Positions 13,134-19,121 of a stretch of DNA of 64,000 nt are shown in pieces. The DNA is taken from NCBI RefSeq assembly GCF_044324875.1, contig NZ_CP172185.1. One strand, 5' to 3'. Every line of letters starts with the position of its first letter. Position 1 is the stretch's first letter. The notes beneath the pieces were generated by a model that saw only the letters and a program-made list of their open reading frames with translations, was not told the DNA's origin and did no database searches. Made by a program: the position numbers and the translations under genes. The DNA is from Escherichia coli (GTDB taxonomy: Bacteria; Pseudomonadota; Gammaproteobacteria; Enterobacterales; Enterobacteriaceae).

Positions 13134-13384
13134 TTTTTATTTCTCTTTCAGGTGAATAGATCGTTTTTACTATCTTACCCCGCACGAATCATCGTTAAAA
13201 TCAGATTATAGTGTAGGAATAATTCGTTTTTTACGAACCATTGAAGGATTTGTGCCATCAGCGATGAGATGAGTTTTTGACGGCTGTAAGCGCTCACGAG
13301 TGACCCTAAGCCCTGATAATCATAGCTTAAGGTCAGGATTTCTGAGGGATTAATTAGGAAAAGTAATAATAAAATCGCACTGTG

Positions 13385-14629
13385 CTATAGCTGTTTATTC
13401 CAGAGATGCTTGAAAATATCTAATGTTGAGACAACATTGGCAGGCGACATTCGGTTTAATGAGGGTAGAAAGGGATGAGCCTCCAGAAAGTTGATAAAAC
13501 GAGTCGCGCTTGCCAACGTCGAATACCGCATTTCATTTGCTTTCTTGTTTCCTGTAAGGTTACAAACAGCCATTGAATAATCACGGGCGGAAAATGCACG
13601 CCAGACATTATTTCTCACGCCACCACTCAAAAATAACCGCGGCGGCGTATCATAATGAGTCGTTTTCTCGCCGCGTTCTTTCACAAATGAAATATGGCAC
13701 CGGCCTTGATGAATATGCTGTAAATTAGCCATCAGACAACCGCCTAATATAAAGCACTCGTGATCAAGGTAGTGTTGAATATTTATAGAATATGCTTCAG
13801 TCAGTGCTCTAACCAGTTCAAAATGGCGATACGCCGGAAGAACCGGTTTCACCAGCATCCCCGGATCGTTTTGATGTAATATCGCCCGACCATAATCAAT
13901 ATCAAATAAGGTATCACGCCGCATAGTAAGTAACTCCTTGCGTTGTACGTGATGCGCCAGTGTACCTGGAGACAAACGCTCTTCATAACTTGATGCATAT
14001 TGATAATGCGACTCTACCGCTGATGAAGAATAATTTGTTGAAATAGCGACGACTCTACCGCTTTGTTCTTCTGCGGTAACAAGACTATAAAGATAGTTGT
14101 TACTACCGTTAAACTTTACGCGAAAAGCGCGGGTAGATAGAGAAATATCAGAAGCAGAAGAATACTGGCAACTTTCTTTATAGTTTACTTCCCGGGCTAG
14201 TTTCATCAACTCACGGTTAAGCCCTGTGCTATTAAGAAGTAATAATTTACGGATATCTGCAAGTGAAGCGCCTTGATCAATCATCAATGCTAAATGTGTT
14301 CTTCGTGGCGTTGTATTTACATGATCCAGAGTGATAAAAGTTCTGGAACAATGATGACAATACATTCTCCTCTGCCCCTGAGCTGAATAGCCATACTTTT
14401 TCAGAGATGTGCTTCCGCAAGCTGAACATTGTGGAACCAACCCTCTCCATGAATGATTAACACGATTACGATAAATATTAAGAGATCGTTCAGATATCAC
14501 AGGAAACAAGTAACCGCATTCCCGACATAAAATATTTTTGCCTTGTGCAATATAATCCTGGCTATTCAACAACCCCAGGTTTTTGCATCCTGGTGTTTTG
14601 CAACAATCAACATTTACGTTGGTAAACAT
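13385..14629 (-). CDS. Cys-rich zinc-ribbon / HTH-like protein of unknown function (about 414 aa from the Met with the best ribosome-binding site)
   Basis: GGGAG ribosome-binding site before the second in-frame ATG (MFTNVNVDCC...). N-terminus carries CC-x4-C, CRECG, CSACG and CHHC pairs; the segment CSACGSTS...YCHHCSRTF followed by a helix-turn-helix-like stretch resembles the zinc-ribbon DNA-binding module of IS1 InsA-type proteins; the C-terminal ~280 aa have no family I recognise. Confidence 0.65.
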   Translation of the reverse strand: MFTNVNVDCCKTPGCKNLGLLNSQDYIAQGKNILCRECGYLFPVISERSLNIYRNRVNHSWRGLVPQCSACGSTSLKKYGYSAQGQRRMYCHHCSRTFITLDHVNTTPRRTHLALMIDQGASLADIRKLLLLNSTGLNRELMKLAREVNYKESCQYSSASDISLSTRAFRVKFNGSNNYLYSLVTAEEQSGRVVAISTNYSSSAVESHYQYASSYEERLSPGTLAHHVQRKELLTMRRDTLFDIDYGRAILHQNDPGMLVKPVLPAYRHFELVRALTEAYSINIQHYLDHECFILGGCLMANLQHIHQGRCHISFVKERGEKTTHYDTPPRLFLSGGVRNNVWRAFSARDYSMAVCNLTGNKKANEMRYSTLASATRFINFLEAHPFLPSLNRMSPANVVSTLDIFKHLWNKQL

Positions 14630-14758
14630 ATTCACTCCCTGCGAATACCCGGATATTATCGTCATATGTCAAAGAAAAGAACCTGATTCAATGTGTAACA
14701 TTGAATCAGGCGGGCATGGCCCTGAAAGGCATACATTACATATATTATGGTTATCAGA

Positions 14759-16252
14759 TTAGCCCCAGGTTACCGCTTCCGGTTTATCACCTCTGGCTTT
14801 CATTAATGAATCATTATCAATATCGGCTTTATACTTTAAGAACTTACCATACATTTGTTTTTCAATGTCTGGATTTTTACCTATCTGATTAATGGTCTCA
14901 AAACGATCGGTTTTGAGGTTGTATAGGTACTTTGGCTTATTGTTACGATCGATGATCATTTTCCAGTCACCATCACGTATCGCCCATTCGTCGGTTGGAT
15001 CATCCTGGAATGGCATGTCAATTCCGAAGATTAATGGCTTTTCACGTTTTAGCGCCTTGTTCTCAAGGACAGGAACCAACGATTCGCCATCAAAAGTCCG
15101 GTCCGTCGGTAATTTGAAGTTCATCATTTTCGCTAAAGTAGGCATCCAGTCCAGACCATAAACGGGTGTATCTGAAACCATTCCCTGTGGTAGATGTTTA
15201 CCATATTTAATAATCGCTGGAACACGAATTCCGCCTTCCCAAAGGTTATCCTTGCGACCGCGTAATCCATCCGTTTCCCCTGCCAAATTCAGCTCATACA
15301 CTTTGCGCGCTTCACGCGTTACCGGACCGTTATCACTGGTAAAAATAACAATGGTGTTATCTTCTTCACCCATCGCTTTGATTTTATCCAGCACTTTTCC
15401 AACCTGTGCATCCAGATAGCTGATATTGGCATAATATTCCCCCACACCACGCCAGGGTTTGTCTGCCCAGTCGCCATAAAATAAATCAGGATGCTGCTTC
15501 TGATACGCGCTCATATATTGTGAGTACATATCGAGGTATTTTTTGGGCGAAGCCAGGGGGCTATGCACTTCGGTAAAAGCGACATAGAGGAAGAAAGGCT
15601 TGCTGTCCTTTTTGTTATCCAGCCAGTTGACGACTTCCGAACTGACATACTCACCGCTCATTTTATCGGCTCGTGGAGTGGGTTGCCCATTACGCAACCA
15701 ACCCGTCGGATACACCATGCCAAAACGGGGACGCTCCTTCGCATTATCCAGAGTAGCGTCGGTAACAAAACCCGCCGTATTAACCAGTGAGTAATCAAAG
15801 CCCATATCTTTTGCCTGCGGCTGATCGGTGCGATCGCCGCCTGCATTCAGATGCAGCTTACCCATCATGGCCGTGTCGTACCCTTGCGCTTTGAGTAGAT
15901 TAGCAATCGTGAGTTCATTACGCCCTAATGCCACATCTTTTCCCGTTGGGATCCATGAGCGTATGCCGGTACGAAATGGCATCCGCCCTGTTAATAGTCC
16001 CGCCCGTGAAGGAGAACTTAAGGGGGCAGGTGCATAATAGTCGGTAAATTTGACGCCTTCCTGGGCAAGCCTGTCTATATTGGGCGTTTTAACGATCTGA
16101 TGTCCATATGTTGCTAAATCACCATAGCCTAAATCATCCGCCATAATGATGACTAAATTGGGTTGTTTAGTTTCGGCGGCTACGGCTGGATTAAAAGCAT
16201 TCCCTGTGCAAACTGCAAGGCCGATCAAACTGGCCATTAATGTTTTCTGCAT
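14759..16252 (-). CDS. Periplasmic Ser-type sulfatase (alkaline phosphatase superfamily)
   Basis: AAGGA ribosome-binding site before ATG (MQKTLMASLIGLAVCTGNAFNPAVAAE signal peptide); sulfatase signature P-L-S-S-P-S-R-A-G-L-L-T-G with Ser at the formylglycine position; metal-binding DDLGYGD near the N-terminus. Confidence 0.88.
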   Translation of the reverse strand: MQKTLMASLIGLAVCTGNAFNPAVAAETKQPNLVIIMADDLGYGDLATYGHQIVKTPNIDRLAQEGVKFTDYYAPAPLSSPSRAGLLTGRMPFRTGIRSWIPTGKDVALGRNELTIANLLKAQGYDTAMMGKLHLNAGGDRTDQPQAKDMGFDYSLVNTAGFVTDATLDNAKERPRFGMVYPTGWLRNGQPTPRADKMSGEYVSSEVVNWLDNKKDSKPFFLYVAFTEVHSPLASPKKYLDMYSQYMSAYQKQHPDLFYGDWADKPWRGVGEYYANISYLDAQVGKVLDKIKAMGEEDNTIVIFTSDNGPVTREARKVYELNLAGETDGLRGRKDNLWEGGIRVPAIIKYGKHLPQGMVSDTPVYGLDWMPTLAKMMNFKLPTDRTFDGESLVPVLENKALKREKPLIFGIDMPFQDDPTDEWAIRDGDWKMIIDRNNKPKYLYNLKTDRFETINQIGKNPDIEKQMYGKFLKYKADIDNDSLMKARGDKPEAVTWG

Positions 16253-16271
16253 AATTATTCCTTGATGAAAA

Positions 16272-17033
16272 TTAGAAATCATAACCAAGCATATAAATCA
16301 TTTGATCGCCAAAACCATCGTAGCCTAACTTATTATCGAAATAACGCCACGTCACACTGGCTTTCCAGCGAGGATAGAACTTCCAGGCAACTGTTAAACC
16401 GCCATTTAACCCATTCCGACCAAATTGTTGTTCCGCATAGGCATCATTTCTGTCCAGTTCTATTTCATTCCAGTTAGATAAAACAAATTTTTCGTCAAAT
16501 AACGTAAAAGGTAATACTGCTGTCCAGCCAACAACATAACCATTCCAGCCATTTGTTTGTCCATATTTGGCTGAGACGTAGTCTCCAGATTGATTATGTA
16601 ATCCAATATACGGTTTAAAAACCCCCCATGAACCATTCCAGCCGAGGTAGCCCAAACCATAAAACATATCAAGATCGTCACCCCATGAGTTATCCCATTG
16701 ACCATAGATCTTGCCAAAGAAAGTCATATTGGAGTCAAAAAGTCTGACATGTGTCATAGCAGAAACGGTATGATTACGCCCCGCTACGGCATGGTTAAGC
16801 ACATTGCTTTCATAAAATGAGTAAAACTCGGCTTCTTTAAAATTCACACCAAAGTCCGCAGTCACTTTCCATACTTCACCACGATGAGTGTTAACGAAGC
16901 CACTATTCCAGTCAGCATAACCTGCATTTATTGAGCCAAAGGAACCTTTATATTCTAATGAAGAATATGCAGGAAGGTGATAGAAAATCGTTGTCAGGGC
17001 ACACGCAATAAGAAGCCGTCTTTTGGCAGACAT
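16272..17033 (-). CDS. Small outer-membrane beta-barrel channel (Tsx/KdgM-like, 253 aa)
   Basis: Signal peptide, aromatic- and Gly-rich alternating strands, and a C-terminal ...GYDF with terminal Phe typical of outer-membrane beta-barrels; immediately upstream of the sulfatase on the same strand. Family assignment is approximate. Confidence 0.75.
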   Translation of the reverse strand: MSAKRRLLIACALTTIFYHLPAYSSLEYKGSFGSINAGYADWNSGFVNTHRGEVWKVTADFGVNFKEAEFYSFYESNVLNHAVAGRNHTVSAMTHVRLFDSNMTFFGKIYGQWDNSWGDDLDMFYGLGYLGWNGSWGVFKPYIGLHNQSGDYVSAKYGQTNGWNGYVVGWTAVLPFTLFDEKFVLSNWNEIELDRNDAYAEQQFGRNGLNGGLTVAWKFYPRWKASVTWRYFDNKLGYDGFGDQMIYMLGYDF

Positions 17034-17543
17034 ATAATATGCTCTCCATTCATTGTTTTTATGGTTCCATAGAAATCAATACATCAGATAATTCATTTTG
17101 ATTAAGAACGACTCAGAAAGTATATTTAAAGGTGAATGGCAAAGCGTGATGGAGATCGCAGATTACTTTTACCCCCGGGTGTGGAGGTATCGTGTTTCAA
17201 AAAGTGTGTCTATTTTAAATATCACTCATTGATTTATAGACATTTTTTCCTTATAAAAAAACACTAAATTCTGTACAAGAATTATTTTGTATCTTCTACT
17301 ACTTTCTCCAGTAATAACTCACCTTTCAGGCATAACTTAAATCTGCTTGTTCATAATCTCAATTTTTGTAAATGAAAAGGCACATAAGAGTTAAAATAAA
17401 CAATGATCTAAAGATTAATTACGCAAAAATGCGAGGCGTCTTCAAGATTAGAATCGATAAAACAGAATGGGTTAAAGAGAGCGATATAATAGCGGCGGGT
17501 GCTTGAGGCTGTCTGTCTCAGGCATTAGCTGAACGGCAGATAG

Positions 17544-17598
17544 AGAAAAGCCCCGAGTGATATTTTACTATCAACCCGAGGCCCCCTATATGCAGAAC
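17544..17598 (-). ncRNA. sokC: Sok-type antisense RNA of the hokC/mokC locus (approximate coordinates)
   Basis: Placed by the known architecture of hok/sok loci (antisense RNA overlapping the mok start on the opposite strand); coordinates are projected, not read from a structure. Confidence 0.35.
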
Positions 17599-17799
17599 AC
17601 ATGTAGAGTGCCTCTTACTGACCGTAAGGTCAAGGAGAAGAGAGCAATGAAGCAGCATAAGGCGATGATTGTCGCCCTGATCGTCATCTGTATCACCGCC
17701 GTAGTGGCGGCGCTGGTAACGAGAAAAGACCTCTGTGAGGTTCACATCCGAACTGGCCAGACGGAGGTTGCTGTTTTCACGGCTTACGAATCCGAGTAA
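17590..17799 (+). CDS. mokC: Mok-type overlapping regulatory reading frame (69 aa)
   Basis: In-frame extension MQNTCRVPLTDRKVKEKRA upstream of the hok ORF, sharing the same stop. Confidence 0.55.
   Translation: MQNTCRVPLTDRKVKEKRAMKQHKAMIVALIVICITAVVAALVTRKDLCEVHIRTGQTEVAVFTAYESE
17647..17799 (+). CDS. hokC: Hok-family type I toxin (50 aa membrane peptide)
   Basis: MKQHKAMIVALIVICITAVVAALVTRKDLCEVHIRTGQTEVAVFTAYESE, the canonical Hok/Gef sequence pattern. Confidence 0.85.
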   Translation: MKQHKAMIVALIVICITAVVAALVTRKDLCEVHIRTGQTEVAVFTAYESE

Positions 17800-17902
17800 G
17801 AGCAACGGCGGGGAGTGATCCCCGCCACTTTACAGGTGCTCGCATATCTTCAACGCACCCTGGTTTTACCCAGGCCTGCCCACGGGCAGGCTTTTGGGGA
17901 GG

Positions 17903-19033
17903 TTAGCGGGTCAGGTCGTCAAAAAACTTCTTCACACCATCAAAGAAGCTCTTTGAGCGCGGGCTGTTGTGCTCGCCGGTTGGGCCACCGAAGCTTTCTT
18001 GCAGCTCTTGCAGCAGCTGTTTCTGCTTCTCGTTCAGGCCTACCGGTGTTTCGACGACAACGCGGCACAGCAAATCACCCTGTGCGCCACCGCGGACAGA
18101 CTTGACGCCTTTACCGCGCATACGGAACAGCTTACCGGTCTGGGTTTCGCCAGGCACTTTCAGTTTGACGCGACCATCAAGGGTCGGTACTTCGATTTCG
18201 CCACCCAGCGCCGCCATAGCGAAGTTGATCGGGACTTCGCAATAGAGGTTGTTGCCTTCACGCTCGAAAATCGGGTGCTGTTTAACCTGAACCTGAACGT
18301 ACAGATCGCCTGCCGGTGCGCCATGCTCGCCCGCTTCACCTTCGCCCGCAAGACGGATGCGGTCTCCAGTGTCCACCCCTGCCGGGATTTTAACGGACAG
18401 CGTTTTGCTGCGCTCAACACGACCATGACCATGACATTTGTTGCACGGATCTTTGATCAGCGTACCGCGGCCCTGACAGTGTGGACAGGTCTGCTGCACG
18501 GCAAAGAAACCCTGGCGCATCTGCACCTGACCAGAACCATGACAGGTCGGACAGGTCTGCGGCTGTGTACCTGGTTTTGCACCGCTACCGTGGCAAACGT
18601 CACACTCTTCCAGAGTCGGAATGCGGATCTCTTTGGTCACGCCACGTACAGCTTCTTCGAGGGTGAGCTCCATGTTATAGCGTAAATCAGCACCGCGCGC
18701 CGCACGTTGACGACCACGTCCGCCGCCAAAAATATCGCCGAAAACGTCACCAAAAATATCGCTGAAGTCTGCGCCGCCGCCGAAACCGCCGCCGCCCATG
18801 CCACCTTGCTCAAACGCAGCATGACCATACTGATCGTATGCCGCACGTTTTTGCGAGTCGGTCAGAACTTCATAAGCTTCCTTGATCTCTTTAAATTTCG
18901 CCTCGGCCTCTTTGTCACCCTGGTTACGGTCCGGGTGGTATTTCATGGCCAGGCGTTTGTAGGCCTTTTTGATTTCACGCTCTTCCGCTGTTTTGGAAAC
19001 GCCTAAAATCTCGTAATAATCTTGCTTAGCCAT
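17903..19033 (-). CDS. dnaJ: Chaperone DnaJ (Hsp40)
   Basis: [38 protein letters not shown]-domain, Gly/Phe-rich region and four CxxCxGxG zinc-finger repeats; downstream of dnaK. Confidence 0.96.
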
Positions 19034-19121
19034 CTTTTTTAAATTGCCCCTAGATGAATGCACGGGCGGAGAGGAAATTCCCCTTCGCCCGTGTCAGTAT
19101 AATTACCCGTTTATAGGGCGA

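Follow-up and report, generated by a model that had tools for sequence, protein, structure and literature searches.

The paradigm for the hok family is the hok/mok/sok system of plasmid R1, in which a promoter, the mRNA 5' element tac, a metastable hairpin, ucb, the mok Shine-Dalgarno sequence (SDmok), the sok promoter with dcb, the hok Shine-Dalgarno sequence (SDhok), hok, a 3' hairpin, the fold-back inhibition element fbi and a terminator follow one another in order. Covariation between tac and fbi in the family has already been published. In R1, the 3' hairpin shields the trimmed mRNA from exonucleases (PMC9841398). Also part of the paradigm are processing of the mRNA at its 3' end, cutting of the hok/Sok duplex by RNase III and cell killing upon decay of Sok, on which the literature for hokC is mixed. 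A chromosomal relative, hokC(gef)/mokC/sokC(sof), is located between nhaA and dnaJ in Escherichia coli K-12, where a 1337-bp IS186 lies in the loop of the 3' hairpin. A further relative is the hokC of strain ECOR24, described in 1999, which reportedly lacks IS186, gives a transcript of some hundreds of nucleotides and has a cis-encoded sokC; the comparison with ECOR24 is by description only. An uninterrupted hokC/mokC/sokC locus is thus already known and ordinary.

The DNA analysed here, called the window throughout, is a 64-kb stretch of the E. coli chromosome with the gene order thr–dnaK–dnaJ–hokC–island–nhaA. It contains, with high confidence, a chromosomal type I toxin-antitoxin system, hokC(gef)/mokC/sokC, in its wild-type form free of IS186. 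The segment 17300-18000 found a match in 5425 of 5426 complete E. coli genomes, and the RefSeq annotation of matching genomes places mokC and dnaJ there, flanked by dnaK, yaaI and thrCB and, in the opposite direction, by nhaA and nhaR. Strain PCN033 aligns to 17497-17960 without gaps and at 100% identity. In the sequence, the reading frames of the toxin and of mok, the antisense region and all named RNA elements are present, contiguous and unmutated (Table 1). The locus shares with K-12 its nhaA–dnaJ site and identical HokC, tac, sok promoter region and Shine-Dalgarno sequences, and differs from it in an empty IS186 site and in a 4-kb island that replaces 125 bp of K-12 on the nhaA side. Two other RNA families were recognized in the window, both expected for the region: the tpke11 sRNA between dnaK and dnaJ (19034-19111, minus strand, Rfam 69.6 bits) and the threonine operon leader (32775-32894, minus strand, 121 bits).

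Table 1. Coordinates of the hokC/mokC/sokC locus and its neighbours in the 64-kb window.
Feature	Position	Strand	Remarks
426-aa ORF, nhaA end of island	13385-14665	-	no Pfam match; 32-aa IS1/IS1595-type zinc-binding motif, NCBIfam 31.8 bits
Sulfatase	14759-16288		
Tsx/OmpK-like channel (porin)	16272-17033		
Putative hokC promoter, -10 TATAAT	17485-17490	+	7 nt before the inferred mRNA 5' end
Full-length hokC mRNA, ~400 nt (inferred)	17497-17897	+	5' end from Rfam and R1 homology; 3' end from a G+C hairpin followed by a U run
tac, mRNA 5' end	17497-17508	+	GGGUGCUUGAGG; 12 nt; identical to K-12
sokC antisense RNA gene, 55 nt	17544-17598	-	overlaps the mok SD and start codon; coordinates transferred via K-12 alignment
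ucb / anti-SD box	17548-17554	+	AAGCCCC; element definition from PMC9841398
mok Shine-Dalgarno	17578-17581	+	GAGG; 8 nt 5' of the mokC ATG; partner ucb (closed) or dcb (open)
mokC frame, 69 aa	17590-17799	+	ATG at 17590; same frame and stop as hokC; Pfam match
Putative sokC promoter	17605-17633	-	-35 TTGACC (17633-17628), 17-nt spacer, -10 CACTCT (17610-17605)
dcb	17610-17614	+	GCCUC; in the sok promoter region; definition from PMC9841398
hokC (gef) toxin gene, 50 aa	17647-17799	+	Pfam PF01848 HOK_GEF; SD AAGGAG at 17632-17637
TACG motif, HokC Tyr47	17785-17788	+	unchanged relative to K-12
3' hairpin	17807-17826	+	GGCGGGGA/UCCCCGCC; starts 8 nt past the hokC stop
fbi (fold-back inhibition) element	17848-17860	+	CUUCAACGCACCC; 12 bp with tac, one bulged C
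Intrinsic terminator-like hairpin	17870-17897	+	GGCCUGCC/GGCAGGCU then UUUU; between hokC and convergent dnaJ
dnaJ	17903-19033	-	convergent with hokC; ORF list and RefSeq annotation of near-identical genomes

The canonical Hok peptide claimed in the original prediction is borne out. The HokC frame matches Pfam PF01848 at 85.5 bits (E = 1.8e-24, cut-off 22), and its peptide, MKQHKAMIVALIVICITAVVAALVTRKDLCEVHIRTGQTEVAVFTAYESE, is identical to K-12 HokC/Gef; both results fit a Hok/Gef protein, a peptide of about 50 aa with an N-terminal transmembrane helix. A mok frame with its own Shine-Dalgarno sequence is also found 5' of hok. It had been described as overlapping hokC; the overlap is not a shifted one, as mokC is read in the same frame and is therefore an N-terminal extension of hokC. 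The codon for Tyr47 holds A17786, presumably a site of TadA A-to-I editing that converts Tyr to Cys; in K-12, 9% of hokC mRNA carries A-to-I editing (PMC12214031). In RefSeq, the 153-nt hokC coding sequence is labelled by PGAP 'mokC: type I toxin-antitoxin system toxin MokC', a name liable to misdirect automated readers.

The order of elements given above for R1 is also that of hokC, and a GGCTTACGAATCCG stretch at the end of the reading frame is conserved between the two. One tac/fbi pair has changed in a compensatory manner, being U-A in hokC and C-G in R1. The differences are that R1 is a plasmid, whereas hokC is chromosomal with mokC in frame, that the first hairpin, and with it the leader, is some 22 nt shorter in hokC, that the sok -10 is weaker, and that HokC has 50 aa compared with 52 aa in R1 Hok. 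Two other segments, 17613-17619 and 17795-17801, were considered as ucb and dcb and rejected, since the definitions in PMC9841398 lead to the positions in Table 1. The 3' hairpin, from the comparison with R1, is presumed to form the 3' end of the processed hokC mRNA.

A candidate antisense arm is likewise recognizable. Rfam RF01794 ('sok') matches 17497-17649 with 118.8 bits (gathering score 59); as this match is on the strand of the hok mRNA, the family models the conserved leader and not the Sok transcript itself. The placement of sokC was instead taken over from K-12, where we take the annotated gene to occupy 16952-17006, and the left end of the interval singled out in the original prediction, 17544, turns out to be the 3' end of sokC. 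A size of 55 bp for sokC is also reported in the literature. The predicted fold of the sokC strand (-23.6 kcal/mol, z = -4.7) consists of an unpaired 5' tail, a hairpin and a tail rich in U. Its putative promoter is in a position homologous to the R1 sok promoter (TTGCGC / TATCCT) and the promoter region is identical to K-12, base for base, with a -10 that is a poor match to the consensus. The putative hokC promoter combines a perfect -10 with a weak -35, ACAGAA at 17462-17467. A scan for consensus promoters and terminators recovered none of the locus's own signals, because it is too strict for weak promoters and a terminator tail of four U; the hairpin at 17870-17897 was missed for having fewer than five T in the tail window.

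Thermodynamic folding, with mRNA ends inferred by homology, predicts that hokC retains the RNA switch published for hok. For the nascent 34-nt transcript (17497-17530), a metastable 5' hairpin is predicted, in which tac pairs with 17515-17526. The full-length transcript has a minimum free energy of -171.1 kcal/mol (z = -7.05 against 100 shuffles) and is predicted to be closed, with pairing probabilities of 0.94-1.0 for tac/fbi and 0.99 for ucb/SDmok, and with segments of 17827-17847 providing further pairing with the mok start region. Transcripts trimmed to ends at 17826-17835 are predicted to be open, tac pairing with ucb (0.95-0.99) and SDmok with dcb (0.91-0.98). These predictions match exactly the three conformations described for the R1 hok mRNA (PMC9841398). 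For the native sequence, the tac-to-3' pairing probability is 0.99, compared with a mean of 0.12 and a maximum of 0.77 among 150 shuffles of 17827-17868. The fold-back context, which had been said to be intact, is so in the sequence and in the predictions, as fbi is contiguous with the reading frame and tac/fbi complementarity is complete.

By analogy with R1 and from the predicted folds, the following course may be proposed. The hokC mRNA of about 400 nt would first form the metastable 5' hairpin, and would then be closed as tac pairs with fbi and ucb sequesters the mok Shine-Dalgarno sequence, a form that would permit neither translation nor binding of SokC. Slow exonucleolytic trimming from the 3' end to the hairpin at 17807-17826 would remove fbi, whereupon the 5' end would re-pair with ucb and leave the mok start region open to both ribosomes and SokC. 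As long as the short-lived SokC is available, it would bind by pairing to this region, and the resulting duplex would be degraded. After a drop in SokC, translation of mokC, coupled to that of hokC, would yield the 50-aa peptide that depolarises the inner membrane. For full toxicity, TadA editing of Tyr47 to Cys is probably needed as well.

The position of IS186 in K-12 determines what its absence can mean. In a BLAST comparison, the K-12 locus aligns to the window as two collinear blocks, 17424-17822 and 17811-18100, whose 12-bp overlap GGGAGTGATCCC (17811-17822) is the IS186 target duplicated in K-12. It comprises the loop and inner stem of the 3' hairpin. In the window the target exists as a single, unduplicated copy, the K-12 IS186 has no match in the entire 64 kb, and the hokC stop (17799) is separated from the dnaJ stop codon, which begins at 17903, by 103 bp. 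The predicted absence of IS186 and the interval of about 100 bp up to dnaJ are both confirmed by these data, and the window is not an interrupted allele of the K-12 type, given the empty target, the 103-bp gap and the lack of the element. The original prediction had also held that the missing IS186 leaves the native promoter intact. That argument is misplaced, as IS186 in K-12 lies 3' of hokC and its absence has no bearing on the promoter.

What IS186 does affect is the 3' side. Being inside the 3' hairpin, it cuts the K-12 reading frame off from everything downstream of 17822, including fbi and the terminator. When the K-12 transcript is extended 200 nt into IS186, its predicted fold stays open permanently, at probabilities of 0.97 for tac/ucb and about 1.0 for SDmok/dcb. 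The absence of IS186 restores fbi, the terminator and those 3' segments that, in the predictions, give additional pairing with the start region of mok. On these models, the state so restored would be the closed, stored mRNA and not toxicity as such, and the difference from K-12 would be limited to this closed form being possible in the window.

The state of the window is that of the majority. An uninterrupted hokC–dnaJ region is present in 3815 of 5426 complete E. coli genomes (70%), and the remaining genomes mostly break at window position 17822, like K-12; the K-12 reference represents a minority state. Both orientations of IS186 occur at the target, about 846 genomes resembling K-12 and about 953 having the opposite orientation, counts that are slightly too high, as they sum to 1799 compared with 1611 genomes that are not uninterrupted, probably because of cross-matching of a hokE-IS186 junction at about 79% coverage. 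Orientation was resolved only by junction queries of 70+70 nt. Four other junction queries were uninformative: copies in the wrong orientation and unrelated copies passed the 80% coverage threshold because of the inverted repeats of IS186 and the similarity of its GGGG..CCCC targets. Two orientations at one target require at least two independent insertions. The hok 3' hairpin, with its GGGG-N-CCCC, is a recurrent IS186 hotspot, and the recurrence in both orientations is an example of target-site specificity that leaves the identity of the locus unaffected.

Individual genomes illustrate the variety of insertions. In strain H106, IS186 occupies the identical 12-bp target (locus L004, 3752-5088) in the orientation opposite to that of K-12 (locus L001, 2900-4236). 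In addition to this downstream IS186, the same strain has an IS150 in the sokC/hokC leader (L004, 2060-3500), at the equivalent of window positions 17572-17576, which indicates that the locus attracts several IS elements. Strain HS-01 possesses at the nhaA–dnaJ site a hok allele whose identity to hokC is just 79.5% (L005, 1744-2163), annotated hokD by PGAP, with IS186 at the same target. BL21-AI (H129) has a hokE-IS186 junction of the same kind.

Allelic variation bears on whether the locus might be inactivated by an overlooked point mutation or a cryptic insertion. Within 17424-17822 (399 bp), the window is 98.7% identical to K-12 and differs at five positions, 17445, 17465, 17569, 17584 and 17594; two more SNPs, at 17862 and 17863, adjoin fbi on its 3' side. 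These seven differences are all that could speak for inactivation, which we hold to be very unlikely. Free of SNPs relative to K-12 are tac, ucb, the Shine-Dalgarno sequences, dcb, the sok promoter region, the hokC reading frame, the 3' hairpin and the fbi pairs. T17569 even improves pairing, replacing an A·C mismatch of the leader/Sok hairpin by an A-U pair, and 17594 alters only residue 2 of MokC (Gln, compared with Leu in K-12). A cryptic insertion is further opposed by the gap-free, 100% identical alignment with IS-free genomes. The findings that the original prediction had named as damaging to it were likewise absent: the sok promoter region and tac match K-12 at every base, complementarity between tac and fbi is complete, and the locus is free of IS elements. 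All paired RNA elements are invariant across four other IS-free alleles and K-12, which suggests purifying selection. One IS-free allele (isolate 30821_1#280, L006) has a CAG to TAG change in hokC that converts Gln3 to a stop, at the equivalent of window position 17653; in the PGAP annotation, the Hok/Gef protein begins at Met7 and is shortened to 44 aa, and the locus is otherwise intact. It is a natural null allele, which the copy in the window is not.

On the nhaA side, homology to K-12 ends at 13370 and resumes at 17424, so that 13371-17423 (4053 bp) replaces 125 bp of K-12. This island is low in G+C and has three genes (Table 1); no gene for a sulfatase maturase was found in it. Its edge, 17423/17424, lies 120 bp to the left of 17544 and 73 bp upstream of the hokC mRNA start. 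With the junction upstream of that start, hokC is not the boundary itself; it comes first among the conserved features on the right-hand side of the island, which corrects the earlier designation of hokC as the right-hand boundary of the sulfatase cassette. Such proximity could be taken to mean that hokC serves as an addiction module stabilising the 4-kb island. This role is very unlikely, because hokC is present in essentially all E. coli whereas the island occurs in only 1271 of 5426 genomes, always chromosomal and in single copy, and because K-12 has hokC without the island. Moreover, island copies are 80-90% identical in 926 of 1281 matching genomes, which points to an old chromosomal polymorphism and not to a mobile cassette with its own toxin-antitoxin system.

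As to the toxin arm, HokC is toxic when overexpressed, according to a 2026 preprint surveying Hok proteins. The same preprint, citing Pedersen & Gerdes 1999, reports neither post-segregational killing nor rifampicin-induced killing for the IS-free hokC of ECOR24. The proposition that IS-free hokC is proficient in post-segregational killing was considered and rejected, being contradicted by this preprint. SokC is functional in K-12, where knockdown of sokC is reported to be strongly deleterious even with IS186 present, in agreement with the permanently open fold predicted for the K-12 transcript. As the IS-free copy of ECOR24 reportedly does not give post-segregational killing and the interrupted copy of K-12 still needs SokC, a description of hokC as functional here and dead in K-12 is too simple. 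The suggestion that the copy in the window may be functional is weaker than implied in view of what the preprint says of ECOR24.

From the ECOR24 result it follows that the killing arm may be inert in practice. The locus could then be intact in sequence and yet a physiologically inert relic, with Hok remaining below toxic levels and the absence of IS186 being irrelevant. This is a real possibility, though we would not favour it. Besides the reported lack of post-segregational killing and of activation by rifampicin in ECOR24, it draws on the low proportion (9%) of K-12 hokC mRNA edited to the Cys codon and on natural null alleles, namely the Gln3 stop of L006 and the leader IS150 of H106. Against it speak the invariance of the paired RNA elements in the sampled alleles, the toxicity of overexpressed HokC, and the deleterious sokC knockdown in K-12, which implies that hokC can reach harmful levels from the chromosome.

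Beyond its correct annotation as the common wild-type configuration of a textbook toxin-antitoxin system of type I, the locus is of little consequence. That the IS186-free and IS186-interrupted alleles are functionally distinct states under selection is a doubtful proposition, to which we attach little probability. If it were true, IS186-free alleles would represent stored mRNA and delayed killing, e.g., on transcription shut-off by phage or stress, and IS186-interrupted alleles would be permanently open and purely SokC-titrated. Repeated insertion of IS186 in the 3' hairpin, whatever its orientation, would then serve as a switch (about 850 compared with about 950 genomes in the two orientations); a junction of the same kind occurs at hokE. 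What is learned about hokC in K-12, where the fold-back element is severed, may not apply to the majority of natural isolates of E. coli, nor what is learned in natural isolates to K-12.
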